A DNA stretch of 64,000 bases, from NCBI GenBank assembly GCA_946611605.1, contig CAMODU010000001.1, positions 170 through 64,169 of the forward strand, in the 5' to 3' direction. The notes under the pieces are model-generated. The model was given only the letters and a program-made list of their open reading frames with translations, was not told the DNA's origin and did not search any database. Position numbers and translations under genes: made by a program. Of the stretch, positions 1 to 45,967 are shown piece after piece; position 1 is the stretch's first letter; each line of letters starts with the position of its first letter. The DNA comes from an uncultured bacterium. GTDB taxonomy: Bacteria > Bacillota_I > Bacilli_A > RF39 > UBA660.

Positions 1-979
1 ATTCATGTGAATAGGAATAAGCTAACGAATAAATCTCATCTCTTTTTCTTTTTCTAGAATTAGAAGAAGATGAATTAATAACATCACCGATTTTATTTTT
101 TAAAATATTATAATCATTGTAGACATTATTAATATTGCCATGAACAACATCAGATCGTATACTATAAATAAAGTTTATAATTGAACTCAATTGCTCAGAA
201 TTATTTTTAGATAATTCAGACTTAGTTCTATAAACAAGCAATCCACATTTAGCAATAAAGTTTTTCTCTATATTACTGTTAGATGCCATTAAAAGGCTTT
301 CTAAAACTAATACATTATTTACAAGCTTATTCTTGTTATTAAATGTATCCGTAAACCAAAACTCTAAAACATCTATTATTTTTTCTATATCTTCATTATT
401 AGACTTAGAAAAGAAAGAGGCTAAATTCTTAAGGTAATCATTATATTTTGAACAAAACATATCCACAGGAACAGTATTGTTTTTTACAAGAAAATAATAC
501 ACTAACAATCCACAGATATCATAATCAGTTAGTTCCTTTTTGGGCAAATTTTTTCTCATAACCAAAGGACGACGCATAAAAATGTCAAAACAATCATTTA
601 CAAATATTAATCTATGATATCTATCAATGTGTGATCTAGCAGATACGCTCTCATTCAAATATAACTCATTATATAGATTAAATATTCTTCTTAAGAAAGA
701 ATAATGAGTCCATTCATCTATATATTTGTTAAGTTTATCTTTAGACACTTCAATAACAAATAAACTTCGCACAAAATCAAAAAAATCCTTCTCGTTTATC
801 TTCTTTCTGTTGGTTTTTTGAGTTATGTTATTATAACATTCATTTGCTGTGTTTATAAGTTCCTTATCAACGTATTTTTCCTCTATTACTTGAATTTCTT
901 TTTCGTTAATTGGTCGAAATTGAATGCCTATTTTATCAAATTCTATTTTATCTTCTAATTTTAAATCCATTATTAGCAT
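1..979 (-). CDS. HEPN-motif protein, partial (326 aa within window; C-terminus lies beyond window start)
   Basis: Open frame translated by hand across 1..979. ATG at 979 has an AGGTGA RBS 7 nt upstream and an upstream in-frame TGA. It is absent from the ORF track because there is no stop inside the window. A C-terminal region carries I-R-S-D-V-V-H-G (Rx4H), a HEPN-type RNase motif. No other recognisable domain. Confidence 0.45.
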   Translation of the reverse strand, partial: MLIMDLKLEDKIEFDKIGIQFRPINEKEIQVIEEKYVDKELINTANECYNNITQKTNRKKINEKDFFDFVRSLFVIEVSKDKLNKYIDEWTHYSFLRRIFNLYNELYLNESVSARSHIDRYHRLIFVNDCFDIFMRRPLVMRKNLPKKELTDYDICGLLVYYFLVKNNTVPVDMFCSKYNDYLKNLASFFSKSNNEDIEKIIDVLEFWFTDTFNNKNKLVNNVLVLESLLMASNSNIEKNFIAKCGLLVYRTKSELSKNNSEQLSSIINFIYSIRSDVVHGNINNVYNDYNILKNKIGDVINSSSSNSRKRKRDEIYSLAYSYSHE

Positions 980-989
980 TTTATTTCAC

Positions 990-1307
990 CTACAATCTGT
1001 CATATTTCGTACTTACACCTTTAGCTTTTTCAACTGGATATTTCTTAGCTGTCTTTTCCATCTTATCTAATACTATTTGTTTAGGATCTACTCCTAACTT
1101 ATTAGCCATTTGAATACAATAGTTTAAAACATCAGCTAATTCCTCTTTTACCTCTTCTATATCATAGTTGTCTTCATTCCATTGAAAACACTCAAGTAAT
1201 TCTCCTGCTTCAATAGATATACTCTTTGCCAAATTAGCTGGTGAATGAAATTGATCCCAGTCTCTTTCTTCATTAAACTTTTCTATCTTTTCTTGAAGTT
1301 CTTTCAT
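990..1307 (-). CDS. MazG-like nucleoside triphosphate pyrophosphohydrolase (small all-alpha NTP-PPase)
   Basis: 105 aa with an EAGELLE...EELAD EExxE/ExxD-type metal-binding pattern typical of the MazG/YpjD family. RBS AGGTGA and an extended -10 (TGATATAAT) upstream. Tightly followed by the HEPN-motif ORF. Confidence 0.7.
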   Translation of the reverse strand: MKELQEKIEKFNEERDWDQFHSPANLAKSISIEAGELLECFQWNEDNYDIEEVKEELADVLNYCIQMANKLGVDPKQIVLDKMEKTAKKYPVEKAKGVSTKYDRL

Positions 1308-1381
1308 AAGATATCACCTATTTAAATTATATCATTTATTTGTCGAAAAAAGTCGAAAAACGACATTCTTCGACTTATTAT

Positions 1382-1717
1382 TTATTCCTTCTTTTTTATA
1401 TAACTTATTCCGATTCCTCCTGCTACAGCTCCTCCAACAAATAACAGTAACTTAGTAAAAAAATCATCAGAATCATCTTTACTATTTTTGGCTTTTTCAA
1501 CAGGTTTAGTAGTAGTTTTAGTAGTATTAGATTCAGATAAGGAATAAGAACCGCTATTTGGATTATCAGTACATCCTCCATGTCTAGAACAACATCCTCT
1601 ATGACAATCACCGCATGTCTTACTAATTGTTCCGTCATTACAAGTTATATTAGCTTTTGCATTAAATGGAATAAAGACCACTAATAAAACTAAAAATCTA
1701 ATCAATCTCTTCTTCAC
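1382..1717 (-). CDS. small secreted Cys-rich protein with C-terminal membrane anchor (DUF3761-like CxDGTxS...CCSRHGGC motif)
   Basis: GTG start with GGGTGA RBS. N-terminal signal peptide. Motif C-N-DGT-I-S-K-T-C-G-D-C-H-R-G-C-C-S-R-HGGC. Ser/Thr-rich linker and a C-terminal hydrophobic segment plus KKKE tail. Confidence 0.4.
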   Translation of the reverse strand: MKKRLIRFLVLLVVFIPFNAKANITCNDGTISKTCGDCHRGCCSRHGGCTDNPNSGSYSLSESNTTKTTTKPVEKAKNSKDDSDDFFTKLLLFVGGAVAGGIGISYIKKKE

Positions 1718-1740
1718 TAGATATCACCCATTAAAAAAAA

Positions 1741-1890
1741 TCAGTCACATTTAACAGATAAACCCAAGACACTCTCACATTGAGTTTCTCCATCAACAGT
1801 TTTAACTATTAATGGATAAAACAATAGAAAATATGCAACTAATCCTAATACAACTAAAACACCTATTATTTTACCTTTAATGTTTTCCAT
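1741..1890 (-). CDS. unannotated 49-aa small membrane peptide
   Basis: ATG 1890 with GAAGGTGA RBS 7 nt upstream. One TM helix (IIGVLVVLGLVAYFLLFYPLIV) then ETQCESVLGLSVKCD. Stop TGA at 1741, just upstream of the Cys-rich secreted protein gene on the same strand. Below the ORF-track length cutoff. Confidence 0.3.
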   Translation of the reverse strand: MENIKGKIIGVLVVLGLVAYFLLFYPLIVKTVDGETQCESVLGLSVKCD

Positions 1891-2038
1891 ACCAATCACC
1901 TTCTTTTATTATATAAAAAATCTGTATATAAAAACATACAAAAATCGACATTTCTCGATTATTTATACTATAATAAATACTATATTTTAAATATAATAAT
2001 GATATAATATTAATATAATATTGAATGAAGGTGTTTGT

Positions 2039-2851
2039 ATGAAATTAATTCAATTAAAATGTCCTAGTTGTGGAGCAAAATTAGAAGTAAATCCAAGCTT
2101 AGATAAATATACATGTAATTACTGTGGAGTAACTACTGTTCTAGATGATGAAAAAATCATAGTTAAGAATGTTTCTAGTAAATTACAAAACTACTTGACT
2201 GAACTTGAAGAATACTATGACAATGGCAATTATAGAAAATGTCATGCTATGGCACAACAATTATTAGAAGAATATCCTAAGAATAAAGAAATTAAAGATT
2301 ACTATGAAAAATGTCATGAAGAATTATTTGGTGAAGAAGAAAGACGCCAAAAGAAACTAGAAGAAGAAAGACAAAGAAGACTTGAAGAAGCAAGAAAACA
2401 ACGTGCAGAATGGGAAAGACAACAAAAAGAAGAAGAGCAAAGGAAAATCGCTGAACAACAAGCAAGAAAAGAAAAGATTAATGAAAGTGCTAGAAAGATA
2501 ACTGGTGGAATAGCAACAGGAGCTGCGATTGCTGGTACTGCCGCAGGAATCATTATTTTCAAAATATTAAATATAGTATTATATGTATTTGGTGGAATGA
2601 TAATACTTGCTTCTCCGTTCATTTCTAGCGTAAGCATATTAGGAAAAATATTATACTTTTTATGGGGAATAAGTTTACTTAAAGTATGTTACTCTAAGAT
2701 ACCTAATAATAATTTAAGAATCGCTTTAAGAATAATAGTTCCAATTATAATATTAATTTTAATTGGAGTAATGGTGCCAATTAATAACAACAATAATACA
2801 AACACTAATGATCAAACAACTACTACAACTACAACTGTAGTAGCTCAATAA
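2039..2851 (+). CDS. zinc-ribbon / coiled-coil / multi-TM membrane protein (hypothetical)
   Basis: The ORF track starts at 2021, but GAAGGTG lies 6 nt upstream of the ATG at 2039 (MKLIQLKCPSCG...). N-terminal CPxCG...CNYCG zinc ribbon, charged ER/K-rich coiled coil, then 3-4 TM segments and an Asn/Thr-rich tail. Confidence 0.5.
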   Translation: MKLIQLKCPSCGAKLEVNPSLDKYTCNYCGVTTVLDDEKIIVKNVSSKLQNYLTELEEYYDNGNYRKCHAMAQQLLEEYPKNKEIKDYYEKCHEELFGEEERRQKKLEEERQRRLEEARKQRAEWERQQKEEEQRKIAEQQARKEKINESARKITGGIATGAAIAGTAAGIIIFKILNIVLYVFGGMIILASPFISSVSILGKILYFLWGISLLKVCYSKIPNNNLRIALRIIVPIIILILIGVMVPINNNNNTNTNDQTTTTTTTVVAQ

Positions 2852-2895
2852 GGGAAGCACACATTCATTATTCTTTTTATTACATAAAAATAATC

Positions 2896-2923
2896 AAAAG
2901 CCATCCTAGGCTTTTCTTTTTAT
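2896..2923. terminator. bidirectional rho-independent terminator
   Basis: AAAAGCC-atccta-GGCTTTT hairpin followed by CTTTTTAT on plus and a T-rich run on minus. Lies between convergent genes 2039-2851 (+) and 2939-3568 (-). Confidence 0.55.
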
Positions 2924-2938
2924 CTAATACTATTAATA

Positions 2939-3568
2939 TTATTTATGTGTATTTATATTAAATCCATATATACCTAATATACCAGTGAAGATTACTGCAC
3001 TGTAGGTACTAAATCTCTCAAATATACCAAATATTTCTTTTGGTACATTTTGTGATACTACTGCTCCTATAAACATTAAGAGTAATGATATTATTGATAA
3101 TACTCCAAGTAATTTATATTTACTTTTAAATGATCCAATTGCTATTAATATAAGTGATATTATCGATAGTAATACTACTATAATAGTTATTATATATACA
3201 TGAATAAAACTTTGTAGTGTTCCATCATATCCACTACTTGATAATGGAAATAATGCATATCCAATTGCAGATATGAAATTCATTATTGATAATAAGTATA
3301 TACCTAGTCTTAATGATTTCTTATTTTCATTTTTTATTAATATACATAATAAAGCACAACATAAACAGTTAAGTATTTTATATACTGTTACATATCCATT
3401 TGATATTACAAAAGATGGAGCATCTGTAGCTGTTAAATCACTTACAGCTTGACTCATCCAGTTATATCCAGGATAATTCATAGCACCAATTATATCATGT
3501 AATAAGTAAAATATAATACTTATAATACCAGATAGACATAACCAATTAATTAATCTTTTATTCTTCAT
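2939..3568 (-). CDS. polytopic membrane protein of unknown function
   Basis: 209 aa, about 6 hydrophobic helices, no recognisable motif. Confidence 0.5.
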   Translation of the reverse strand: MKNKRLINWLCLSGIISIIFYLLHDIIGAMNYPGYNWMSQAVSDLTATDAPSFVISNGYVTVYKILNCLCCALLCILIKNENKKSLRLGIYLLSIMNFISAIGYALFPLSSSGYDGTLQSFIHVYIITIIVVLLSIISLILIAIGSFKSKYKLLGVLSIISLLLMFIGAVVSQNVPKEIFGIFERFSTYSAVIFTGILGIYGFNINTHK

Positions 3569-3591
3569 TATTACACCTCTATTATGATTAA

Positions 3592-4647
3592 TTAGAATTT
3601 ACTTAATAGATCTATTAATCTAGTATTCTTATATATACTTTCTCTACCAACTTTTTCATATTCTAATAATCCTGCTTCCACAAGACTATTTAGATATGTT
3701 GCAGCTGTTTGTCTAGTAACACCACATCTATCTTCTATATAATTAATCTTTGTATATACTTCATAGAATACTGAATCTAATAATTCATCAGAATATATCT
3801 TAGGTAATTTAGTTATAAATTCTTCTTTATATGAATCAATTAATGATTGTATTTTTTTAATTAATTCTATTGTGTGTTTAGATGTTATATCTACTCCTTT
3901 AAGAATATATATAATCCAATCCTCATAATTGTTATTATTTCTTAAATCAGATAATAATCTATAATATTCATCTTTTGTATCATTTATATAATTACTTAAA
4001 TATAGAATAGGACTATCTAATAAGTTATTTAATACTAGATATAAAACATTTAGAATTCTTCCTGTTCTTCCATTTCCATCATAGAATGGATGAATAGATT
4101 CAAATTGATAATGTATTAATGCCATTTTAATTAAAGGATCAATACCATCATCTTTTGTATTAATATAGTCTTCTAAGTTCTTTAAATAATCTCTTATTTC
4201 TTTTTCTTCTTGTGGTGGTGTGTATATTACTTCACCTGTTTTACTATTAACTAATTGAGTACCTGCAGTTTTTCTTATACCTGATTTATTTGGTTCAATC
4301 ATAGATTGTAAGTCCACTAAAACATTTGTTGATATGAAACCTTTTTTATTAATCACTTCATAGCCATGCCAAATAGCTCCTCTATAATCTACTACTTCTT
4401 TAGCTGCATCTTCCTTATATCCACTTTCAGTTAATACTTTATATATACTATCATGTGTTGTAACTATATTTTCTATTGCACTACTATCAATAGCTTCATT
4501 TATTGTGATAGCATTAATTAAAATGTGTTGATTAGGAATTGAACTAGCAAATCCTTTTAGTTCTGCAAGAGATCTAGATGCTTCATTAAGAGCTTCCATT
4601 ATTCTTGGAGTTTTATAATCATATTCATTGAATGGTAATAATTTCAT
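3592..4647 (-). CDS. Fic/DOC family protein (AMPylator-type, class II with N-terminal inhibitory helix, C-terminal winged helix)
   Basis: Canonical Fic motif HPFYDGNGRTGR. N-terminal S-S-A-I-E-N matches the (S/T)xxxE(G/N) auto-inhibition motif. Start trimmed to ATG 4647 (MKLLPF...), which has a GGAGGG RBS 5 nt upstream; the ORF-track start at 4698 has none. Confidence 0.85.
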   Translation of the reverse strand: MKLLPFNEYDYKTPRIMEALNEASRSLAELKGFASSIPNQHILINAITINEAIDSSAIENIVTTHDSIYKVLTESGYKEDAAKEVVDYRGAIWHGYEVINKKGFISTNVLVDLQSMIEPNKSGIRKTAGTQLVNSKTGEVIYTPPQEEKEIRDYLKNLEDYINTKDDGIDPLIKMALIHYQFESIHPFYDGNGRTGRILNVLYLVLNNLLDSPILYLSNYINDTKDEYYRLLSDLRNNNNYEDWIIYILKGVDITSKHTIELIKKIQSLIDSYKEEFITKLPKIYSDELLDSVFYEVYTKINYIEDRCGVTRQTAATYLNSLVEAGLLEYEKVGRESIYKNTRLIDLLSKF

Positions 4648-4680
4648 ATTATCCCTCCTTACATATATAATTTTACTATA

Positions 4681-4751
4681 TTTTTTTAACATATTCAAAT
4701 AATACGTTAAATTTTTGCTGTTTTTTTAACATATTTAAATAATGTGTTAAA
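4681..4751. promoter_or_regulatory. two tandem 31-bp direct repeats (TTTTTTTAACATATTYAAATAATRYGTTAAA, period 40 bp), each an imperfect palindrome TTAACAT-N12-AYGTTAA, overlapping the likely fic promoter
   Basis: Repeat copies at 4681-4711 and 4721-4751, 34 bp upstream of the fic ATG. On the fic sense strand TTGAAT-N17-TAAAAT overlaps copy 1. Confidence 0.4.
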
Positions 4752-4807
4752 GAATGAATTTGAAGGGATTAAAGAATACAATCTATAGAATGGATTACAT
4801 ATTAACA

Positions 4808-4896
4808 GTTTACTGATGTCAGTAAACCGATAATAAAAATTGCCGCCATTGGCGGCAAAATCTTAAAATCACTAAATTTGCACACACTGTGTGCAA
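4808..4896. repeat. three perfect short-centre palindromes: GTTTACTGA-tg-TCAGTAAAC (4808-4827), TTGCCGCCA-t-TGGCGGCAA (4840-4858), TTGCACACA-c-TGTGTGCAA (4878-4896)
   Basis: Read directly. 9-bp arms with 1-2 nt centres. The last two share a TTGC...GCAA frame. GC-rich relative to surroundings. Confidence 0.5.
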
Positions 4897-4904
4897 AATC
4901 AAAA

Positions 4905-4931
4905 AGAGAAGTACTCCTTCTCTTCTTTTTA
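4905..4931. terminator. bidirectional rho-independent terminator
   Basis: AGAGAAG-tactc-CTTCTCT followed by TCTTTTTAT on plus and TTTTTGATTTTG on minus. Confidence 0.55.
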
Positions 4932-4946
4932 TCTCATACACATAAA

Positions 4947-4974
4947 AAAAGAGATATTAATCTCTTTTATTCAT
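4947..4974 (-). terminator. rho-independent terminator of the ABC transporter operon
   Basis: AAAGAGAT-atta-ATCTCTTT hairpin overlapping the permease stop codon, followed on the minus strand by TTTTTTTATG. Confidence 0.55.
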
Positions 4975-7342
4975 TAGCTTTTAAACTAGTAACCATATCT
5001 ATCTTCTTTATATTTCTAGATAAGAATCTAGATACTAAATAAGATATAACAAATGTACCTACAGCTGCTATTACATATGATATAGGCCTAATAGATGCAC
5101 CAAAGTCATATGTTTCTTCTATAGCTGTTTTAAATAACCAATCAGTTAAATAGAATCCACCAGGTAATCCAAATATAATTGATACAATTGCTATCCAGTT
5201 ATTTTGTTTAATAAATATTTTCTTTATTTGTTTATCTTCAAAACCTAATACTTTTAATGTAGCAAATTGATATTGTTTTTCTGTATAAGAAAGTATTCCT
5301 AAATTATATATAATAACTGCACCTAAAAGAATAGCTATTGCTATAATTAATACAAGCATTGTTTTCATCATAGATAACATACCTTGCATACCATTCTTTA
5401 ATGATTCAATATCTTGGATGTTTTCAACATTCTTAATTTCTTTAACATTCTTTAAATCTACATTTGTATATAATGCATCAGGTTTATATTCTATACCTAA
5501 TGACTCTAAATACTTTCTAGTCATGGATATATTTTGATTTTGAGGATCTTTATTAAATCCGATTATCTTAGATTTATAGTATTTACTATCACCATATATA
5601 TGCCACTCGATAGTATCACCTAGTTTATATCCTTTAGTTTTAGCTAATTTATATGTAACAAATATACCATCATCATCTGGTTTATTCTTAATATTATTCT
5701 TATCATCTACAAATCTTACATATTCATTTGCATCAGTTACAAATATATTATTAGCTTCTCTATTACCTTCATTATCTTTTATTTCAATACCTAAGTATTT
5801 AGATGTATTATTACCATATTTATCATATAAGATATTTAAATCATCATTAGATATATCTTCTTTAATATTTAATTTATAATCAAAATTATAGATAGTTTCA
5901 AATTGTAATTTAACAAAGAAGTTCATAGAATCTAACATACCTAATGCACATACAATTAAAGTACAACAACCAACTACACCAGCAAGTCCCATGAATGTTC
6001 TCATTTTATTTCTTAAGATATCTCTTATATTCCATAGAGATTCAAAAGACATATGTTTAAATATTTTAGATCTAGTAATATTTAATGCATTACCTTTGAT
6101 ACTTGGTATTTTAGTTCTTAATGTTTCAGCAGGATTTTCTCTTAATATTGATCTACCTGTTATATAAGTTATTAAAGCTACTATTAATACAACAATACCT
6201 GCAACATAATAACTTGTAATATCCATTGAAGGAGCACCATTAGGTATTTCAAAGAATGCCATCTCTAAATCAATAAATACTTTACCTATTGCATAATAAC
6301 CTAATACTAAACCAACAATGGATGCAAATACAGATACCCAGAAACCATATCCCATATAATGGAATAATATTTTATTATTACTAAAACCTAATGCTTTTAA
6401 TGTTCCTATTTGAACTCTTTGATTCTTAACTACTCTTGTCATGGTAGTTATAACAGATAACATAGCAATAAATAAGAATATACCAGAGAATACTCCTACA
6501 TAAGTTTTTCCTTCATCTATTTCTCCTTGATATGCTGAATATGATGATGAATCTTCTATATTAATTATTGCTTTAGCATTTTCTACTTTATCTTCTATTT
6601 CTTCTTTTAGTTTATTTCTTTTATCTTTATCCTTAACATCTATCATGATAGATGAATATGGTATATAATCTTTATAATTAAAATCAGGTACAACCATATC
6701 AAATACTTTTTTATCTTCTATACCTGCTTCTTTCATAGCTTTAGATTTAATATAATCTTCAGTTATTTCATTGATAGATACATAAGCAAAACCAAATTCT
6801 TTTCTATCTGGATATAATTCAGATGAATCTCTTACATCATATAAATGATCAGGTATATTAACCAATGCTCTTACCTTTTCATGTAATTCCATAGTTTCAT
6901 ATTTAACTAGTATTACATCACCTACATGTATATTATTTTCTTTTGCATAAAATTCATCTAACCATACACCTGATTTATTATCAAATGGTTCTCCATCAAC
7001 AATATAGAATTTAGATATATTATTAGATTCAATAAAATTTAATAATAATGTTTTATCATTATCAGTTAAACCAGATACAGATAATTTTAATTCAGCATCA
7101 TTAACATTATCCATCTTTTTAATCATATTTAAATCATCATGTTTTAAATAACCCATGACATCCATATCTTGTAAGTTATTTTCAGTATAGAACTTATCAG
7201 CTGTTTTAGTCATACCATCCATATATGCTTTTATACCAGAGAAAGCCATGATACCAATCATAACCATTAAAAAGATTGTTATAAATTGAGATAAATTTTT
7301 TCTTATATCTCTAAACATCTTTCTATTTAACATGATTACCAC
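4967..7342 (-). CDS. ABC transporter permease, FtsX-like family (two FtsX-type 4-TM modules with large extracytoplasmic domains)
   Basis: 791 aa. N-terminal TM then a large soluble domain then 3 TM, repeated twice. This is the MacB/YtrF-like architecture. Start overlaps the ATPase gene end by 7 nt. Confidence 0.8.
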   Translation of the reverse strand: MVIMLNRKMFRDIRKNLSQFITIFLMVMIGIMAFSGIKAYMDGMTKTADKFYTENNLQDMDVMGYLKHDDLNMIKKMDNVNDAELKLSVSGLTDNDKTLLLNFIESNNISKFYIVDGEPFDNKSGVWLDEFYAKENNIHVGDVILVKYETMELHEKVRALVNIPDHLYDVRDSSELYPDRKEFGFAYVSINEITEDYIKSKAMKEAGIEDKKVFDMVVPDFNYKDYIPYSSIMIDVKDKDKRNKLKEEIEDKVENAKAIINIEDSSSYSAYQGEIDEGKTYVGVFSGIFLFIAMLSVITTMTRVVKNQRVQIGTLKALGFSNNKILFHYMGYGFWVSVFASIVGLVLGYYAIGKVFIDLEMAFFEIPNGAPSMDITSYYVAGIVVLIVALITYITGRSILRENPAETLRTKIPSIKGNALNITRSKIFKHMSFESLWNIRDILRNKMRTFMGLAGVVGCCTLIVCALGMLDSMNFFVKLQFETIYNFDYKLNIKEDISNDDLNILYDKYGNNTSKYLGIEIKDNEGNREANNIFVTDANEYVRFVDDKNNIKNKPDDDGIFVTYKLAKTKGYKLGDTIEWHIYGDSKYYKSKIIGFNKDPQNQNISMTRKYLESLGIEYKPDALYTNVDLKNVKEIKNVENIQDIESLKNGMQGMLSMMKTMLVLIIAIAILLGAVIIYNLGILSYTEKQYQFATLKVLGFEDKQIKKIFIKQNNWIAIVSIIFGLPGGFYLTDWLFKTAIEETYDFGASIRPISYVIAAVGTFVISYLVSRFLSRNIKKIDMVTSLKANE

Positions 7343-8034
7343 TTAACCTCATCGATGTTCTTTGGATGTTTATTTATTTCATTAGATTCAACTAAACCAT
7401 TTTTAATTCTAATTACTCTATCAGCTATATCAGCTATTAATGCATTATGAGTAACTATAATAACTGTAGTATCATTATCACTTTGTTCTCTTAAAAGTTT
7501 TAATACTTCAACACCTGTTTTAGAATCAAGTGCACCAGTTGGTTCATCACATAATAATACTTTAGGATTCTTCATGATTGCTCTAGCAATAGATACTCTT
7601 TGTTGTTCACCACCAGATAATTCTTGTGGGAACTTATTAGCATGTCTAGATAATCCAACAGCTTTTAATACTTCTTTAGAATCTTTTGAAGTATTAGTTA
7701 CATCTTTAATAAGATTAACATTTTCTTCAACTGTTAAAGTAGGCATTATATTATAGAATTGGAAAATAAATCCTACATCATTAGCTCTATATCTAGTTAA
7801 TTCTTTATCATTATATTTGGCTATATCATTATCACCTATCATAATAGATCCAGATGTTGCTTTATCCATTCCTCCAAGTAAATTTAATAAAGTAGATTTA
7901 CCAGCACCAGAAGGTCCAAGTATAACAACAAACTCACCTTGTTCAATTGATAAATCAATACCATCAAGAGCGTTAAATTTTTGATCTCCTACTATATATG
8001 TCTTTTTAACATTATTTAATTCAATAAAACTCAT
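7336..8034 (-). CDS. ABC transporter ATP-binding protein (MacB/LolD-like)
   Basis: Walker [10 protein letters not shown], signature [14 protein letters not shown], Walker [13 protein letters not shown]-loop VTHN. Confidence 0.9.
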
Positions 8035-8043
8035 TTATGTTCC

Positions 8044-8120
8044 TTCTTTCTAAATATGAAATTTATTTCATATTCCATTATACTCTTATGAAATGATAAG
8101 TCAATGAAAAATATGAATAT
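8044..8120. promoter_or_regulatory. two copies of an inverted repeat ATATGAAAT-tt-ATTTCATAT (8044-8063 perfect; 8101-8120 one mismatch) in the tetR / ABC-operon divergent region; candidate TetR operators
   Basis: Read directly. An extended -10 TGTTATAAT and AAGGA RBS lie upstream of tetR. Confidence 0.45.
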
Positions 8121-8171
8121 TATTTCATATTCGTAAAATATATGTTATAATTCAATCAAGGATGTGTATTT

Positions 8172-8783
8172 ATGATAGATACAATAAGAGAACCTAAACA
8201 AAAAAGAGCAATAGAAAAGAAAGAAAGAATCATTAAAGAAGGATTCGATCTTATCTGTAAGGAAGGCTATTATAATATTAATACTCAAGATATAGCTAAG
8301 GCTGCTGGAGTATCAACAGGAATAATATATCAATACTTCAATGATAAATATGATATCTTAATTGAAGGTTTAGAAAAATATGGTGATGATATATTCTTTC
8401 CTATGTTAAAAGATAAAGATTATAAATTAGATATAGATAATTTTGATAATCTAATTAATAAGATGATTAATAATTATATAAAGAATCATAAAATATCTAA
8501 TGTAGCTCATGAAGAAATAATGTCTATGATTCACTCAGATAAAAATGTAGCTGAATTTTATTATAAGAGAGAATTAGATATGACTAATTCTATAAAAGAT
8601 ATATTAGTATCTAATGGATTTAAAGATAATAACTTAACTGAAAAAGTTCATATTATGTTAGGTCTTATAGATAACTTATGTCATGAAGTTATTTACCATA
8701 AACATGATCATATGGATTATAAGATTATGGAAAAACTAGTAATAGATAATATAAAGAATTTATTTAAAGATGATATAAAATAA
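8172..8783 (+). CDS. TetR/AcrR family transcriptional regulator
   Basis: N-terminal HTH (...NTQDIAKAAGVSTGIIYQYFNDKYDIL...) typical of TetR. About 200 aa, all-alpha. Divergent from the ABC exporter. Confidence 0.8.
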   Translation: MIDTIREPKQKRAIEKKERIIKEGFDLICKEGYYNINTQDIAKAAGVSTGIIYQYFNDKYDILIEGLEKYGDDIFFPMLKDKDYKLDIDNFDNLINKMINNYIKNHKISNVAHEEIMSMIHSDKNVAEFYYKRELDMTNSIKDILVSNGFKDNNLTEKVHIMLGLIDNLCHEVIYHKHDHMDYKIMEKLVIDNIKNLFKDDIK

Positions 8784-8806
8784 AAGGAACTAATAATAGT
8801 TCCTTT
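8783..8806. terminator. bidirectional rho-independent terminator
   Basis: AAAGGAACTA-ataa-TAGTTCCTTT 10-bp stem between convergent tetR (+) and SDR (-), T-rich on both sides. Confidence 0.6.
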
Positions 8807-8808
8807 TA

Positions 8809-9579
8809 TTATACACAAGTATATCCACCATCAATAGGTAATATTACACCAGTAACATAACTAGCTTCATCACTAGCTAAGAATATAGCACCTGCATTAA
8901 GTTCTCCTTCTTTACCATATCTTTTCATTGGTACATGATTATTAGCAAATTCTTTAAAATAATCACTATCAAGAACTTCTGTAGTTAATTCAGTATAGAA
9001 GTATCCAGGACATATAGCATTAACTGTAATGTTATATGGTGCTAGTTCAGCTGCTGCTGCTCTAGTAAAGTTAACTACTCCACCCTTAGATGAATGATAT
9101 GCTATAGTAGGTATTTCAGTATTACCTACTAGCCCATACATAGAAGCTATATTAATTATTCTTCCATAGTTATTCTTTTTCATAAGATTAGCAAATGCTC
9201 TAGTCATTTTAAATACAGATGTAAGATCAGTATTAATTGTGAAATCCCATTCATCATCTTGCATATCAAGTACACCTTTATCTTTTGATGAACCAGCACA
9301 ATTAACTAAGATATCTACTTTACCAAATTCTTTTTCAGTTAATTCAACTGCATTATTAATATCTTCTGTAGATGTTACATCACATTTAATAGGTATTATT
9401 CTAACTCCTGTAGAAGATAATTCATTTTTAAGTTCTTCTAATCTTTCTATTCTTCTTGCAAGTATAACTAGATCAGCACCTTGATTAGCAAACGCCTTAG
9501 CCATTTGTTTACCTAATCCAGATGATGCCCCAGATATAACTGCTACTCTTCCTTTTAAGTTAAACATCTTATTCACCAC
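8809..9579 (-). CDS. SDR family NAD(P)-dependent oxidoreductase (FabG/KduD-like)
   Basis: VAVISGASSGLGK Rossmann motif, NAG, catalytic YxxxK region, 256 aa. Confidence 0.8.
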   Translation of the reverse strand: MVNKMFNLKGRVAVISGASSGLGKQMAKAFANQGADLVILARRIERLEELKNELSSTGVRIIPIKCDVTSTEDINNAVELTEKEFGKVDILVNCAGSSKDKGVLDMQDDEWDFTINTDLTSVFKMTRAFANLMKKNNYGRIINIASMYGLVGNTEIPTIAYHSSKGGVVNFTRAAAAELAPYNITVNAICPGYFYTELTTEVLDSDYFKEFANNHVPMKRYGKEGELNAGAIFLASDEASYVTGVILPIDGGYTCV

Positions 9580-10468
9580 TTTCTATATATTTAATAGCAT
9601 TAGTGGCAGCAACAGCACCATCAGATGTAGCTGTAACTAATTGCCTTACTTCTTTAGTTCTATTATCACCTGCTACAAATATAAATGGTATATTAGTCTT
9701 ACAATCTTCATTAGCTATTACATAACCTTGATCATCTAGATTAATTATATTTTTATAATAATCATTTGAAGGTACTCTTCCTATAGCTACAAATAAACCA
9801 TCTATATTAATAGTATTAATAGAACCATCTTTATTAGTCACTTCTATACCAGTTAATTTATCATCACTTATTAATTTAGTTACTGTACTATTAAGTATTA
9901 ATTCTATATTATCTTTTTGTTTAATTAAATTAAATGATTTATCTTCTCCTCTGAATTCATCTCTTCTATGTATTATATATACTTTATTAGCTAAGTTAGA
10001 TAAATATAATGCATCTTCAAGTGCAGTATTACCTCCACCTACAACTGCTACATCTTTCCCTTTAAAGAATGCTCCATCACATGTAGCACAGTAAGACACT
10101 CCTTTACCTATTAATTCATCTTCATTAGGTAAACCTAACTTTCTATTATCTGATCCTGTAGCAATAATAATAGCTTTAGCATTATATTTATTATTAGCTG
10201 TAATAACTTCTTTATTATTAGTTATTTCTATTACTTTATCAAATACTATTTCAGCACCTAATTCTTTGGCTTGATTATATAAATTAGTTGCAAAGTCAAA
10301 TCCAGATATATGATTATTAGCTGGATAGTTTTCAATATCTAATGTATTAATTATTTGTCCACCATAAGATTTAGCTTCTAAAACTAATACACTCTTATTA
10401 GCTCTTCTTCCATATATAGCTGCAGTTAATCCTGCAGGTCCTGCTCCTATTATAATAATATCGTACAT
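9569..10468 (-). CDS. trxB: thioredoxin-disulfide reductase
   Basis: FAD motif IIGAGPAGLTAA, redox CATCDG, NADPH motif VAVVGGGNTALEDA. 299 aa. Confidence 0.9.
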   Translation of the reverse strand: MYDIIIIGAGPAGLTAAIYGRRANKSVLVLEAKSYGGQIINTLDIENYPANNHISGFDFATNLYNQAKELGAEIVFDKVIEITNNKEVITANNKYNAKAIIIATGSDNRKLGLPNEDELIGKGVSYCATCDGAFFKGKDVAVVGGGNTALEDALYLSNLANKVYIIHRRDEFRGEDKSFNLIKQKDNIELILNSTVTKLISDDKLTGIEVTNKDGSINTINIDGLFVAIGRVPSNDYYKNIINLDDQGYVIANEDCKTNIPFIFVAGDNRTKEVRQLVTATSDGAVAATNAIKYIESGE

Positions 10469-10469
10469 A

Positions 10470-10778
10470 TTATTTACCTCCTATGAAAGAATCTAATTCT
10501 GATCTAGATATTAAACCAACACTTCTATTTATTTCTTCACCATTTTCAATTAATACTAAACATGGTATAGAAGATATATTATATTTACTAGCTAATTCAT
10601 CTTCATTATCTACATTAATAGATACTATTTTAATATCATTATTGGATGTTGATATTTCTTCTAAAACAGGTTTCATCATTTTACATGGTCCACACCATTC
10701 AGCATTAAAATCAACTAATACTCTTTTTTCACTTTGTAATACTTCTTTATCAAAGTTATCTTTATTTACTTCTATCAT
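10470..10778 (-). CDS. trxA: thioredoxin
   Basis: WCGPCK active site, 102 aa. AGGAGG RBS inside the ohrR 3' end. TAATG 1-nt overlap with ohrR. Confidence 0.85.
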   Translation of the reverse strand: MIEVNKDNFDKEVLQSEKRVLVDFNAEWCGPCKMMKPVLEEISTSNNDIKIVSINVDNEDELASKYNISSIPCLVLIENGEEINRSVGLISRSELDSFIGGK

Positions 10779-11221
10779 TATTCTTCCTCCTTACTTAAGT
10801 TACCTACTATTTTATACATAAGAGAATATAATGTTTTAACTTCTTCTTCAGATAAGTTAATACATTTACCCATTTCACATGGAACAGATAAAGCTTTATC
10901 TCTTAAAGCTAATCCTTTTTTAGTAATAGTTACATCTAAGTTTCTTTCATCTTTTAATGATCTAGTTCTAGTAATATAATCTTTAGCTTCTAACTTCTTT
11001 AATAAAGGTGTTAAAGTACCTGAATCTAAGAATAAAGCATCACTTATATCTTTAACATTACTTGTATTATGTTCCCATAGATACATCATAGTTATATATT
11101 GAGTATATGTTAAATCTAAATCATCTAATAAAGGTGTATATCTTCTTATTATTTCTTTTGAACATAAATAAATAGGAAAACATAATTGATTCTTAAGAGT
11201 TAATGAATCATATTTATTCAT
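10778..11221 (-). CDS. ohrR: MarR-family organic hydroperoxide resistance regulator OhrR
   Basis: LKNQLCFPIYLCSKEIIRRYTPLLDDLDLTYTQYITMMYLWEH and DSGTLTPLLKKLE closely parallel B. subtilis OhrR (recalled from memory), including the sensing Cys in the QLCF motif. Confidence 0.8.
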   Translation of the reverse strand: MNKYDSLTLKNQLCFPIYLCSKEIIRRYTPLLDDLDLTYTQYITMMYLWEHNTSNVKDISDALFLDSGTLTPLLKKLEAKDYITRTRSLKDERNLDVTITKKGLALRDKALSVPCEMGKCINLSEEEVKTLYSLMYKIVGNLSKEEE

Positions 11222-11233
11222 ACAATCACTTCC

Positions 11234-11773
11234 TTATAATAATTCTAATATATCTTTTTCTATATTAGCTGGATCAAATGTAGGATCATATCTTTTAACA
11301 GCATTACCATCTTTATCAACTAAGAACTTAGTAAAGTTCCATTTAATATCTGATTGTTTCTTACATGTAGTACTTATCTTAGATACTGCTTTCATAGCCA
11401 TTTTATTCTTAAGTCCTACTATTTCTTCAGCAGGTTGTTGTTCTTTTAAGATTTTAAATACTTCAGATTCATTTTCACCATTTACATCTATTTTATCAAA
11501 TTGATCAAACTTAGTATTATATTTAGCAGTACAGAATTCATGTATTTCATCATTACTACCTGGTGCTTGATGTCCGAATTGATTACATGGGAAATCTAAC
11601 ACTTCAAATCCTTTGTCATGATATTTTTCATATAACTTCTCTATTCCTTCATATTGTGGAGTAAATCCACATCCTGTAGCAGTATTAACTACTAATGATA
11701 CTTTCCCTTTCAAATTATTTAAATCAAAAACACTACCAGATCTTGTTTTTACTTTTAAATCATATATATTCAT
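11234..11773 (-). CDS. gpx: glutathione peroxidase
   Basis: VVNTATGCGFTPQYEGIEKLYEKY and FPCNQFGHQAPG are classic Gpx motifs. AAAAGGAGA RBS. Confidence 0.85.
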   Translation of the reverse strand: MNIYDLKVKTRSGSVFDLNNLKGKVSLVVNTATGCGFTPQYEGIEKLYEKYHDKGFEVLDFPCNQFGHQAPGSNDEIHEFCTAKYNTKFDQFDKIDVNGENESEVFKILKEQQPAEEIVGLKNKMAMKAVSKISTTCKKQSDIKWNFTKFLVDKDGNAVKRYDPTFDPANIEKDILELL

Positions 11774-11795
11774 ACTAATTTCTCCTTTTTGGTTG

Positions 11796-11835
11796 TACGC
11801 AATTTAATTGTACCCTGTTAAATAAGGTTTGTCAA
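11796..11835 (-). promoter_or_regulatory. near-consensus sigma-A promoter TTGACA-N17-TACAAT with an OhrR-box-like inverted repeat overlapping the -10
   Basis: On the minus strand: TTGACA (11835-11830), 17-nt spacer, TACAAT (11812-11807), then TACAATTAAATTGcgTAC. This resembles the B. subtilis ohrA operator TACAATT-AAATTGTA. Confidence 0.6.
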
Positions 11836-11846
11836 TAAAAAAGAAG

Positions 11847-13394
11847 TTATTCACTAACTTCTTCTTTATTATCATTTCCAACTAAACCTAATTTATCTAG
11901 TTCATCATAGAATCTTACATCATTTATATCTAGATCAGAAATAGATAAATATTCATAGTTAATTAATTCTTGAATATCATCTATTACTTTATCTAAATGA
12001 TCAGGTTCTAATGTTTCAGGTTGTAGATTAAAGTCATTTAAATTATATTTATTAATTATTAATAATTTAATTTCTTTTTCATCTAATAAAGCTAAATGAT
12101 TTAATAAACTAAAATCTATATAATCTAAACTATCCTTTAATTCTTCAAAGTTAAATGTTATATCTTGTAATGGAATATTTTCATCATGTTTCTTATATTC
12201 ATATACAAAATATAAGTAATTAGATGTAATAAAATCAAATATAACATCTACACTTGAATCTTTAGATAACTTATTATAAATAGTATCATTGAAACATATA
12301 TCATCAAACTTATCAAACTTATCTAATAAAGATTTAATAGTTTCATTATAATTGAATAGCCATTTTTCATCACTCTTCTTCTTAAAGAATAATATAGGTT
12401 TCTTATCTCTACTAGCATTTAACTTTCTTATCTTGTTTTCATCTTGTTGTATTTCTTTAATAGCATTAGCTTTTAAACCTTTATAAGAATCTTTATTATC
12501 TAATCTTTCTTTCATATTATTAAGTAAGAAAGAATAATCTAATAATAATTTATATTCCAATAAAGAATACTTAAACTTAAGTAGATTTTCTAATGAATAA
12601 CCATTATCTTTAAAATATAAGTATTTAGTTTTAGCTATATCAGCATCATTAAAGTCACCTAATAGCCATTCCTTATTCTTAAATTTATTAAATAATATAT
12701 AAGGATCAACACTTTCAATATGTTCAATTTGATTAATTAATTTTTCTTTTAAATTCTTAATCTCTTGTTCTGAATGTTCTTTTAAGAATTCTTGATGTCT
12801 ATCAACATAGTATTTTTGTATTTTCTTTTCATATCTTATATATATACTCTTAAAATTAATCTCAATAATTTTAATTATTTCAGGAACATGCCAATAGAAA
12901 TCTTCGAAGGCATTAACTAATTCTTCTTCAGACTTATTATTAATAATCATATCAACATATATAGCAGCATGATGATTATAATCAAAGTCAGCCTTAGTTA
13001 ATTCTATTCCTACCTTCTTAAATGCATCTAATACTTTTCTAATTACTTGATTAATACTACGTAGATCTTCTTTATAGAATCTATGTAATTGATATAAGTA
13101 ATAATCTAAATGCATTTTTTCATATGGAGTATTATATTCATTCCATTCATTTAAAATATTACAATTTTCTAATTCCTTCTTTAGATTATCTATTTCAGGA
13201 TTAGGTTGATATACATCAAATCGAGTAAGACGAGATTTAATCTCATCTTCCACGATCTTTAATTGTTCATTTACTTCATTTTCTGCATCTAATACTACTT
13301 TTTCTCTTTTCTTTCTTTGATCAACTGTTTTAGTTGGTAAGACTTCAATGACACCTTTAAATTCTTCTATTTTATTTTCTAATTCTTCTATCAT
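11847..13394 (-). CDS. hypothetical acidic, largely alpha-helical cytoplasmic protein (515 aa)
   Basis: No TM or signal, no recognisable motif. Start overlaps the stop of the upstream 39-aa ORF (ATGA). Confidence 0.5.
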   Translation of the reverse strand: MIEELENKIEEFKGVIEVLPTKTVDQRKKREKVVLDAENEVNEQLKIVEDEIKSRLTRFDVYQPNPEIDNLKKELENCNILNEWNEYNTPYEKMHLDYYLYQLHRFYKEDLRSINQVIRKVLDAFKKVGIELTKADFDYNHHAAIYVDMIINNKSEEELVNAFEDFYWHVPEIIKIIEINFKSIYIRYEKKIQKYYVDRHQEFLKEHSEQEIKNLKEKLINQIEHIESVDPYILFNKFKNKEWLLGDFNDADIAKTKYLYFKDNGYSLENLLKFKYSLLEYKLLLDYSFLLNNMKERLDNKDSYKGLKANAIKEIQQDENKIRKLNASRDKKPILFFKKKSDEKWLFNYNETIKSLLDKFDKFDDICFNDTIYNKLSKDSSVDVIFDFITSNYLYFVYEYKKHDENIPLQDITFNFEELKDSLDYIDFSLLNHLALLDEKEIKLLIINKYNLNDFNLQPETLEPDHLDKVIDDIQELINYEYLSISDLDINDVRFYDELDKLGLVGNDNKEEVSE

Positions 13395-13510
13395 TTCTTC
13401 TCACCAGCCTCTTGATTCTTCTCGGCTTTTATTACATCTAAATAATCTAATAATAGACGATATAATTGTATTATTTCAGCATTAGATAAATCTTTAATTT
13501 TTTCTTTCAT
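13391..13510 (-). CDS. unannotated 39-aa ORF (MKEKIKDLSNAEIIQLYRLLLDYLDVIKAEKNQEAGEKK), translationally coupled (ATGA overlap) to the 515-aa gene
   Basis: Hand translation. GTGAGG RBS 8 nt upstream of ATG 13510. Lies 10 nt downstream of the giant gene stop. Confidence 0.4.
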   Translation of the reverse strand: MKEKIKDLSNAEIIQLYRLLLDYLDVIKAEKNQEAGEKK

Positions 13511-13520
13511 GTTGATAACC

Positions 13521-16500
13521 TCACTTTATAATTATATACCTAGTTACATCTCCAATGAAAGTAGAGTTGTCATATAGTTTAAATACTAATCTATATGTAC
13601 CTGTTGTCATTGTTTCTTTCATCTTAAATGAATAATCTATAGATGCAACTGGTCTACCAGATAATATGTATTCATGATTATTTTCAGATGGGGTTAATTC
13701 TTGATCTATAAAATCTTGTAAATCCACTTCAACATAATCAGTGTCATAATAATCATCATATGTTCTTCTATACATTTGAATTCTAGTATTAGGATTACTT
13801 AATAATGAATTATACTTAATATTAAAGTTCAATGATTTATCATTATTAGTTCCATTAAATATAACTGAATTATCACTTATAGTAGGATTAATACCATACT
13901 TACTATTGATAATAGTTTTATTCATTTCAAATGTATAAGATGTATCAGAGAAGTATATACCATCAGGAGATCCAAATGCTTCAAATACAAATTTATAATC
14001 ACCTGAAGGTAAGTTAGAATTTTCTGTATTGAATGTAATCCACTTTTTAACATTACCTACTTTTTCAGCAATACTCATATGTGTAATACCATCAATATCA
14101 GAATAATACTTAACTCCATCCATTTGGAAATAACATCCTGTAAGGTCAGTTCCTGATACTATATGACCATCTTCTGTTTCTAAATGTATTTGTAATCCTA
14201 ATTTAGAATCAAAGTATTGTGTATCTATTACTGCAGTTCCACTGTCAGATGAATTATGATAATCAATTGTTACATCCATATTATCATTATAACCAATATA
14301 TAATGTATTATTCTTAGATGTAGCTACACCATTAATAATTGAATCTTTATTAGCATATATATTATATGTTAATTGATTATGTTCAATACCTAATACAGTT
14401 ACTAAGGTTTCATCTTGATCATCTCTTAATTCAATTAATAACCTAGAATTCATTTTATCAGTTGTTATATTAGCATCTGATAAATCAACTATAAATATAA
14501 ATTCTTCTGAACTATCTCTTCCATCATAATAAATACTATTCATGTATTCATCATTATATTTCTGAGATGTATCATCTGTACCCATCCTTGTAAAATTAGA
14601 CAATGGATAAGATGCTTCATGATGAATTCTTAATTCATTTGTTGCTCTAGCCTCTTCATCAGGAGTAACTATATAGTAATAGTAATAAGGTTCATCATTA
14701 GTATAATCTATCATAGTTATTTTAGTATTAGTTGGGAACACAATATTTGAAGATAATACTCTATGATAACCTTCTTTATATAAATTATTGTTTTCTGAAT
14801 ATATAGAGTAATAAGCAGAGAATTTACTCTTAGCTGATATATTAGTTGTTGTTGATGCAAACAACTCATACTTATCACCTGGAGTCATAGCTCCTTCATA
14901 TTCATCAGTTTGGAATAATGCAGTAGACATATTAACATTGATAACTAATCTTCTTACTTTACTCTCTAATGCACTTTCCTTTGTTATTGCCATTATTGAA
15001 ATTCTAACAGTTCCTAATTCTTTCTCTTCAGAGATATTTTTAGAATGGTATAAATAGAAAAGCATAGTTGGAACATTGCTAGAGTTTTCACCTACATAAT
15101 AATCTTGTCCACTCATAGATGGTTCACCAGTATAGAATGAGGTCTTACCTTTTGTTAACCATCCAGAGTTTGATGCTTCCATAGATAAACCAAATACATT
15201 ATTTTCAGTTCCTTCACCTATTCTAGGTATTTGATCTTTATCCACTAATGATATACCATCAGCTACATCATTAGCATTTGAATTTAATATTTGGAATGAT
15301 GTATTAGGTGCAGAGAATTCTAAGAATGATAACTCTGTAGATCCTAATGTAGAATACTTAGATGCTACTAGATTAACATTATATTCAATAACATTCTCAC
15401 CTATAAACCACATATAGAAGTTTGAACTTTCTGGTGTTGGTTCAATATATTTAACTTCATTTATTAAAGTATCTTCATCCATATAATTAGAATAGAATCC
15501 ATTTACTCTAATATCATGATTAGTTTGATGTTTACCTAATACATATGAACCACGGTCAAATGTTTCAGCATATGAAACATGATCACCATTGTTAACTGTA
15601 TGAGAGTAAATACCTGTATGAACATGACCATTACCATCATAGTTATACATACCAAAGAATGACATACCTTGAACATCACCATAATCAGTAACTTGTTGGT
15701 CTCTTGCAATATTTAAGTTTTTACCTTCATACATATATATTCTATTATCAACATTACGAGTAACATTACCATCTTCTATTTGAACAGTAGCTAAGTTATC
15801 ATCTTTATCAACTGATCTATATACTTCAAGTAAGTTAGCACCTGCTTCTAAATATAAATCAGAATTATCTTTTAATGTTAATAATGGAACTCTTGATATA
15901 GCAAATAATTCTTTATCATAATCATTAGCTCTATCCATTGCACCTGTTAATATCATACTTGAGTTTTCTATAGTTGCATAAGTAACTCTTTGAATAGATA
16001 TATTCTTTTGAGGATTATCTCTTGATCCATAGTTCTTAATATTTAAGCAACTATCACCTGCAGATGTAGATGCATTACCACCACCATAGAAAGAACCATC
16101 TATTTTGTATGAATCATAATCAGTTGCATCAATATTAATTTCTGTTCCTTCTGTAACAGATATAAAGTACCAGTCATATATTTCAGATCCAGCAGCATTA
16201 GCTTCACCACCACCAAAGATATGACCTTTAATATATATTGGTGATTTAGTTAATCCATCCATAGATGATAAATTATTAGCTCCTATATTAACTAATGCAT
16301 TACCATTTATAACTGATGTATTAGCTCCACCATATACATTACCATATATTGTTCCACCTACTATATCAACAGTAGATGTAGAATTACCTAATTCAGTACC
16401 AGTGAAAGCTTTATTACCTCCACCAAATACACATCCAGATGCCGGAGTAATAGATTCAGGTGTACCAACAATTGTATTACCATCTACTACTATATGTGTA

Positions 16501-45960: not shown

Positions 45961-45967
45961 ATCAAAA

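Follow-up and report, generated by a model that had tools for sequence, protein, structure and literature searches.

A MazG-like pyrophosphatase and a putative HEPN-type protein open what is probably a mobile anti-phage operon in an uncultured RF39 bacterium

Background

Why should a gene for a small nucleotide pyrophosphohydrolase stand directly ahead of a gene whose product bears the Rx4H signature of HEPN ribonucleases? The question is raised by the first 1334 nucleotides (nt) of a 64,000-nt stretch of DNA from an uncultured bacterium of the RF39 lineage (assembly GCA_946611605.1, contig CAMODU010000001.1, positions 170 to 64,169), hereafter called the window, to which all positions refer unless stated otherwise. 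An earlier reading of the letters alone (the original prediction) had seen there a minimal MazG-type enzyme coupled to a large protein with a HEPN-type Rx4H motif, and in the two a plausible two-component defence or toxin pair. The second gene and its product are called X below.

MazG-type domains have been predicted, and remain unvalidated, as defence components (PMC13092281). Defence proteins of two other kinds are relevant here. Nhi is composed of a nuclease and a DUF2075 helicase and defends on its own (bioRxiv 10.1101/776245), and restriction systems have been connected with at least 16 clades of HEPN proteins, a PrrC-like fail-safe model having been proposed for these clades (PMC3710099). 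None of the papers in the library searched names MazG together with Nhi.

In the present analysis, we read the locus beyond the window, assessed its recurrence in other genomes and examined the conservation of X. We consider it likely that window 1-1334 holds the promoter and the first two cistrons of a horizontally mobile, multi-gene anti-phage operon, for which we propose a mechanism based on modified cytosine and an RNA-cleaving arm.

Results and discussion

The two genes open a conserved operon

Both genes lie on the minus strand, and X leaves the window at its first position. The remainder was read from contig L025, a metagenome scaffold of the European Nucleotide Archive on which an identical MazG protein is encoded. 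This scaffold matches window 1-11307 with 100% identity and reaches 6 kb past the window start; the five genes of the operon occupy its positions 10001-14674. X proved to be a mid-sized protein of 351 amino acids (aa) and not the large one first assumed, and 25 of its codons lie outside the window. The partial open reading frame (ORF) to position 979 stood as predicted; the spacer to the MazG-like gene was corrected from 8 to 10 nt. X is followed by a gene for a nuclease-helicase, and in this genome by two further genes, encoding a Nudix protein and an SRA-DUF3883 protein; all five genes are translationally coupled (Table 1).

Table 1. Features of the operon in the window and on contig L025
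Feature	Position	Strand	Length	Remarks
Candidate extended -10 promoter element TGATATAAT	1326..1334	minus		Read from sequence, upstream of the MazG-like gene
Ribosome-binding site AGGTGA of the MazG-like gene	1314..1319	minus
Operon gene 1, MazG-like, DCTPP1-type pyrophosphohydrolase	990..1307	minus	105 aa	First cistron; PF12643, PDB and PHROG matches
MazG-X spacer	980..989	minus	10 nt	MazG TAG stop at 990-992
Ribosome-binding site AGGTGA of X	986..991	minus		Overlaps the MazG stop codon
Operon gene 2, X (codons 1-326 of 351 in the window)	1..979	minus	351 aa	ATG start at 977-979; leaves the window at its start; 10 nt after gene 1; no known family
Conserved C-terminal all-helical domain of X, putative HEPN-type	1..463	minus		Residue 173 onward
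Codon of invariant E227 of X (in V-L-E-S-L-L)	299..301	minus		Candidate upstream active-site acidic residue
Codon of invariant K244 of X	248..250	minus
Signature F-I-Y-S-I-R-S-D-V-V-H-G of X	137..172	minus		Y272, R275, H280 and G281 invariant, S276 nearly so
Operon gene 3, nuclease-helicase			623 aa	1-nt spacer after X; Pfam SLFN-g3_helicase/DUF2075
Operon gene 4, Nudix			128 aa	4-nt overlap with gene 3; NudG-like
Operon gene 5, SRA-DUF3883			344 aa	1-nt overlap with gene 4; SAD_SRA/SRA_ScoMcrA and NOV_C (DUF3883)
UvrD/helicase-IV-like	L025 14804..17056		750 aa	130-nt gap after gene 5

The triad of MazG-like gene, X and nuclease-helicase was retrieved in six lineages, each with a different variant of X: the window with L003 and L025 (variant P0001, this genome), L001/L002 (P0002, MazG with a nonsense codon), L006 (X about 67% identical to P0006, in a metagenome-assembled genome (MAG) of Bacillota), L014 (P0003), L015/L016 (P0007) and L020/L021 (P0017). 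In all six, the nuclease-helicase gene lies 1-13 nt behind X. The original prediction of a two-component pair was abandoned on this ground, together with that of the two additional coupled genes of this genome.

The loci become similar in nucleotide sequence some 28 nt ahead of the MazG-like gene, at a conserved TGnTATAAT element, and the similarity continues through the helicase; the three genes therefore appear to travel as one unit with their own promoter. The element occupies the equivalent position in L001 and L006. A generic promoter scan did not list it, no -35 match being present, and the promoter role of TGATATAAT is putative.

Outside the unit, the flanks differ at every locus and are rich in defence genes, e.g. 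AIPR, Dcm, MutH, AspBHI-Mrr and a PDC-S06 ATPase around L001, a KAP NTPase and PDDEXK_9 around L020, and NERD and Macro around L015. The distribution is sporadic, in defence islands and on mobile elements, which bears out the defence context first suggested and is not that of core housekeeping genes. From these comparisons, the conserved core would consist of a DCTPP1-type MazG, X (about 350 aa) and an Nhi-like enzyme joining a PD-(D/E)xK-type motif to a DUF2075/Schlafen-group-3 helicase of superfamily 1B (SF1B). The data directly back the identities of the MazG, helicase-core, Nudix and SRA/DUF3883 proteins, the operon structure, the mobility and defence context, the residue conservation in X and the cassette swapping described below.

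The first gene encodes a DCTPP1-type pyrophosphohydrolase

By its sequence, the product of the first gene is a genuine minimal all-alpha (deoxy)nucleoside triphosphate pyrophosphohydrolase of the DCTPP1 type, the MazG-type assignment being upheld by a 75.2-bit match to the Pfam family PF12643 (MazG-like; cut-off 27) and by two metal-binding motifs, E33-A-G-E36 (ExxE) and E56-L-A-D59 (ExxD), that align with DCTPP1. PF03819 was matched with 27.3 bits and a PHROG pyrophosphatase with an E-value of 5e-13. The nearest entries in PDB were the pyrophosphatase 4qgp, 6sqw and 2a3q (mammalian dCTP pyrophosphatase 1, i.e. DCTPP1/RS21-C6; E about 3e-17). This similarity predicts a preference for dCTP or modified dCTP as substrate.

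X defines a family with an invariant Rx4H motif

The family of X is rare: among 1.84 billion cluster representatives searched exhaustively with HMMER, 26 gave E ≤ 1e-3; one of them, P0019, is a eukaryotic Kelch/BTB repeat protein and was rejected as spurious. Word-indexed protein searches with profiles recovered almost no members of the family. The family alignment comprises 26 sequences (HMMER matches and P0002) with pairwise identities of 20-37%. Six residues are invariant in it: E227, K244, Y272, R275, H280 and G281 (E224, K241, Y269, R272, H277 and G278 in P0001, whose residue numbers become those of the 351-aa form by adding 3). S273, N279 and W332 (P0001 numbering) are nearly invariant, the serine that follows the motif arginine being present in 25 of the 26 sequences. 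The family signature reads ...E-S-L-L...K...Y-x-I-R-S-D-I-V-H-G-N, and the I-R-S-D-V-V-H-G noticed originally in the C-terminal region was confirmed as residues 274-281 (window 137-160).

A single Rx4H in a protein of 350 aa is not significant alone. Here, conservation lifts the motif above chance, since its R and H and the four other residues are invariant in spite of the low overall identity.

Full-length X matched no family in Pfam, NCBIfam (June 2026, including recent anti-phage families), PADLOC or PHROGs. It was absent from plasmid and phage collections searched with tblastn (a 75-aa query covering the motif region was used for plasmids only) and from a scan of viral contigs, and sequence and profile searches of PDB gave only noise (Pre/Mob, RanGAP, Cas10 tail).

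A 436-aa protein of locus L013 was also considered as a homologue. It shares only the common motif (17 bits), was retrieved by a pattern that selects for this motif, and was not counted. This protein (L013 1536-2846), encoded in high-GC DNA, carries ...ALETLI... and, near its C-terminus, YYGIRSDIVHGN; it has no Pfam family and may be another unannotated HEPN-like protein.

The C-terminal domain of X is a putative HEPN-type domain

In HEPN domains, the Rx4-6H motif is found where core helix 3 ends and the next loop starts, with a polar residue after the arginine and an acidic residue upstream (PMC3710099). X carries the motif and the polar residue. In an AlphaFold2 model of the whole protein (pLDDT, the predicted local distance difference test score, 81; predicted template modelling score, pTM, 0.81), a small alpha/beta N-terminal part is followed by a disordered stretch and an all-helical C-terminal half; the C-terminal domain modelled alone (pLDDT 89.8, pTM 0.86) has eight helices. 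In both models, helix 258-277 (P0001 numbering) has the R...H segment at its C-terminal end, and the segment continues into the loop behind it; the next helix starts 3 residues later, so that the predicted structure would place the motif in an all-alpha domain as HEPN requires. E227 is the candidate for the upstream acidic residue; it is invariant, but the residue at +4 is hydrophobic, and an invariant lysine stands 17 residues further on.

The C-terminal domains of 24 members of the family were also scanned on their own for weak matches to hidden Markov models (HMMs), each match coming from one or two members. Pfam HEPN_Apea (PF18739; E 0.024, 15.5 bits, cut-off 24.4), Pfam HEPN_RiboL-PSP (PF18735; two members, best E 0.005), PADLOC CARF_HEPN (E 5e-4) and PADLOC Cas13a (E 7e-3) were all matched below threshold. 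HEPN was the only family type to recur, and the matches are probably driven by the motif region. The Rx4H of the original prediction is the most conserved feature of the family and not an incidental one; the membership in HEPN claimed with it is argued from sub-threshold matches and has no fold match. Taking sequence and models together, we think it probable, at slightly lower confidence than the operon reading itself, that X has an active site of the HEPN type, i.e. that of a metal-independent RNase.

X is exchanged as a cassette between near-identical operons

Between the window and L006, the MazG proteins are 94% identical and the helicases 94% identical over 623 aa, whereas the X proteins share 28% identity, and nucleotide similarity stops and restarts exactly at the borders of X. 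Likewise, the first 56 residues of the helicase are 96% identical between L001 and L015/L016, against 30% for X. Most variants differ in both halves, the N-terminal one more (21-41% identity, against 31-48% in the C-terminal half). Such a pattern is as expected for a component under diversifying selection that is recombined through conserved neighbours.

X was also found away from the triad, and at some loci without the helicase. In a second clade, X pairs with a Nudix. In L004 and L005 (MAGs of Erysipelotrichaceae), X precedes the Nudix gene between two large serine recombinases, and the short contig L009 carries the same X. L008 has an ASCH-Nudix gene, then X, then a serine hydrolase, beside Mob relaxases; in L011 and L012, X is followed by the same serine hydrolase. 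The Nudix domains of the loci combining X and Nudix are 72% identical despite the flipped gene order. The link between a pyrophosphatase and X suggested by the first pairing thus recurs in another clade. At four loci, X has no pyrophosphatase neighbour (L018, L019, L022 and L023); its neighbours include an AAA ATPase (L019), a transmembrane protein (L023) and AbiTii (L022).

Nuclease-helicase, Nudix and SRA-DUF3883 proteins suggest a mechanism

The nuclease-helicase matches Pfam SLFN-g3_helicase (PF09848, DUF2075 SF1B core) with 357-362 bits, and in its homologues from elsewhere the helicase core alone is matched by the PADLOC models AbiO (60 bits) and Nhi (55 bits). In its N-terminal 250 residues, D79...E97-L-K99 is invariant among four sequences; this putative PD-(D/E)xK motif fits the architecture of Nhi and Nhi-like proteins, an N-terminal nuclease followed by DUF2075. 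Nhi-type helicases are described as single-gene systems; the helicase found here is always embedded in MazG-X-helicase.

The Nudix protein of L025 matches NCBIfam NF007834 ('pyrimidine (deoxy)nucleoside triphosphate diphosphatase') with 103 bits, under the equivalog cut-off of 156, and its nearest PDB entry is the CTP pyrophosphohydrolase 2rrk (E 1e-21). E. coli NudG/Orf135 acts on CTP, dCTP and 5-methyl-dCTP. DCTPP1 hydrolyses 5-methyl-dCTP as well (PMC4491611). DUF3883 provides modification-dependent restriction enzymes with their PD-(D/E)XK nuclease, and several of these enzymes adjoin DUF2075 NTPases (PMC6765204). The fifth gene combines this nuclease domain with an SRA reader domain in one protein, as in type IV restriction, an arrangement encountered in this genome only; no methylase is among the genes listed on L025.

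We propose that the nuclease-helicase degrades phage DNA, as Nhi does, and that in this genome the SRA-DUF3883 nuclease would assist it by reading 5-modified cytosine in that DNA. The MazG-like and Nudix enzymes would hydrolyse modified dCTPs; their destruction may starve the phage, or prevent the incorporation of modified bases into host DNA and so spare the host from the modification-dependent nuclease, or both. X would be an RNA-cleaving arm, acting either as a sensor-effector or, once the DNA arm is blocked, as a PrrC-like fail-safe. The whole-gene replacement between near-identical operons may mark it as the part in direct contact with phage factors that evolve fast. The modified-cytosine theme is drawn from three independent genes of this genome and may fail to extend to the core triad at large.

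Weighing the interpretation

Several observations weigh against the interpretation as a whole or against parts of it. The upstream acidic residue of X departs from the usual E-x3-[KR] form. No HEPN family was matched by X at its curated threshold, full-length X gave no HEPN match, and Foldseek searches of PDB and BFVD with the full-length model and domain models, one of them of pLDDT 90, returned nothing with E < 0.4. The nuclease assignment of the third gene has the D79...E97-x-K99 pattern as its single basis, PDB and profile searches being empty. One lineage has a pseudogene in place of the MazG-like gene, whose role is accordingly dispensable or modulatory. Finally, the core operons of L001 and L006 lack both the SRA and the Nudix gene; the modified-cytosine theme may for this reason be limited to this genome.

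The interpretation closest to the original one is a two-gene toxin-antitoxin or abortive-infection pair in which X is a HEPN RNase toxin and MazG, or Nudix, its antidote or regulator, e.g. by degrading a nucleotide that activates X, as might be compared with mazG in the mazEF operon. The tight 10-nt spacing, with a ribosome-binding site that overlaps the MazG stop, the pairing of MazG and X in six lineages and the coupling of X to Nudix in either gene order would all suit it. It is nevertheless improbable in our judgement. A CAA-to-TAA nonsense mutation at Q19 interrupts MazG in L001 (9672-9989) and L002 (6444-6761), two independent assemblies of one lineage, beside an intact helicase and an intact X that keeps every invariant residue. 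MazG is thus ancestral to the module and yet dispensable, which argues against an essential antitoxin role; the antitoxin of a type II system cannot be lost beside an intact toxin, as has happened here. In addition, X occurs at the four loci mentioned above with no pyrophosphatase at its side, and the nuclease-helicase stands directly behind X at every MazG locus. An obligatory antitoxin is therefore an unlikely role for MazG, and a milder, modulatory 'off-switch' role of MazG or Nudix, again through degradation of an activating nucleotide, is possible.

X could instead lack catalytic activity and be a subunit that gives the Nhi-like nuclease-helicase its specificity, serves it as an adaptor or regulates it, the R/H patch of X binding a ligand or partner. 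Whole-gene swapping does resemble that of specificity subunits, a 1-nt spacer couples X to the helicase, and no structure or profile match to HEPN is significant. We give this possibility a low probability, on a par with the toxin-antitoxin pair: a set of invariant or nearly invariant E, K, Y, R, S, H, G and N in so divergent a family looks like an active site, the Rx4H sits at a helix end as in HEPN, the only recurrent weak matches are to four different HEPN-bearing HMMs, and X also exists without the helicase. Housekeeping sanitation of the nucleotide pool, with MazG as an ordinary house-cleaning enzyme among unrelated neighbours, is what DCTPP1-type enzymes do in other organisms; it is hardly credible for a MazG gene that tolerates a nonsense mutation, is sporadically distributed and shares its similarity with the neighbouring genes through the helicase while the outer flanks change at every locus.

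We thus retain the multi-gene anti-phage operon as the preferred interpretation. A bolder version of it, which we regard as tentative and rather doubtful, holds that the operon is an undescribed immune system in which X would be a new, cassette-exchangeable HEPN sensor-effector guarding the Nhi-like motor, with dedicated dCTP-type pyrophosphatases (MazG and Nudix) removing modified cytosine nucleotides of the phage type, which would allow a modification-dependent nuclease to act and yet spare the host's own DNA.

Comparison with known systems

The third gene resembles Nhi (SERP2475), Nhi-like proteins and AbiO by its N-terminal PD-(D/E)xK-type motif and DUF2075 SF1B helicase (PADLOC 55-60 bits), the PADLOC matches being confined to the helicase core. 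Unlike Nhi, which works alone, it is always preceded by MazG and X, and followed in this genome by Nudix and SRA-DUF3883. A putative HEPN-type Rx4H protein encoded within a DNA-restriction operon recalls PrrC/EcoprrI, RloC and other HEPN proteins embedded in restriction systems, which have been proposed to serve as an RNase fail-safe once the DNase arm is neutralised (PMC3710099); X, however, lacks the ABC-ATPase domain and any detectable kinship with PrrC, its partner is a nuclease-helicase and not a type I restriction-modification enzyme, and an anticodon-nuclease activity of X would be conjectural. ApeA-like and RiboL-PSP HEPN proteins (PF18739 and PF18735) gave the best Pfam matches, under the gathering thresholds, over the segment from K244 to Rx4H. 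ApeA is a defence HEPN protein of restriction-modification operons; X has neither the beta-rich N-terminal domain of ApeA nor an L-PSP fusion.

McaZI-type modification-dependent enzymes likewise show a modified-base reader fused to a DUF3883 nuclease beside a DUF2075 protein (PMC6765204), but the reader is here SRA and not DUF3427, and the operon adds two pyrophosphatases and X. As for mazEF-mazG, DCTPP1 and NudG, a pyrophosphatase gene shares its transcript with the gene of a toxin or nuclease, and the closest sequences are cytosine-nucleotide pyrophosphatases; in contrast to mazEF-mazG, neither MazE nor MazF is present here, and the substrates of the MazG-like and Nudix proteins are predicted by similarity. 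Each ingredient is of a known kind (HEPN-like protein, Nhi-like helicase, house-cleaning pyrophosphatases and type IV reader-nuclease); what is new is their combination and the family of X.

Neighbouring genes and other observations

The UvrD/helicase-IV-like protein encoded behind the operon on L025 contains an insertion with a PD-(D/E)xK-like pattern (...YRPDFTI...), and its gene may be a further component of the island. A Fic protein with a HPFYDGNGRTGR motif is encoded 2.3 kb upstream of the operon (window 3592-4698, minus strand; Pfam Fic_N, Fic and SoFic-like_C; 374 bits to NCBIfam SoFic NF046030, under the cut-off of 550) and may represent a second defence gene. A zinc-ribbon and transmembrane protein is encoded near X at three unrelated loci (window 2021-2851, plus strand; L001 1862-2434, minus; L018 1453-1938, plus), the genes of the window and L001 sharing 70% nucleotide identity over 257 nt. 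The protein may be a neighbour that recurs with X, or its presence may be coincidental.

In L015, a 38-aa ORF just upstream of MazG (5512-5613) matches the N-terminal 34 residues of the L025 Nudix protein with 76% identity and looks like the remnant of a rearranged Nudix gene. L008 encodes a DncV-like CD-NTase with an AGS_C sensor domain (362-2884), then an ORF of 152 aa and a separate Nudix. These genes stand some 2.5 kb ahead of the Nudix-X-hydrolase trio of this locus, the element also bearing Mob relaxases and a serine recombinase, and may form a CBASS-like module.

Elsewhere in the window, on the minus strand, an ornate large extremophilic (OLE) RNA was matched at 45480-45961 (Rfam RF01071, 204 bits, E 6e-56); it reaches from one end of the model to the other, although it takes up 482 nt and the model 616. 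This RNA hints at an anaerobic, Clostridia-like member of the Bacillota as host. At 13521-21290 (minus strand) lies a giant ORF of 2589 aa.

Conclusions

The operon offers a compact test case for MazG in defence, with a hypothesis centred on cytosine-modified nucleotides; if the bolder version were true, it would give housekeeping-type MazG and Nudix enzymes their first functional role inside a restriction-like system. Nhi-like nuclease-helicases, described so far as single-gene systems, also form the conserved core of multi-gene operons. Finally, the swap of X between operons that are otherwise 94% identical is a natural experiment, and it points to X as the component that sets specificity or that phage inhibitors attack.

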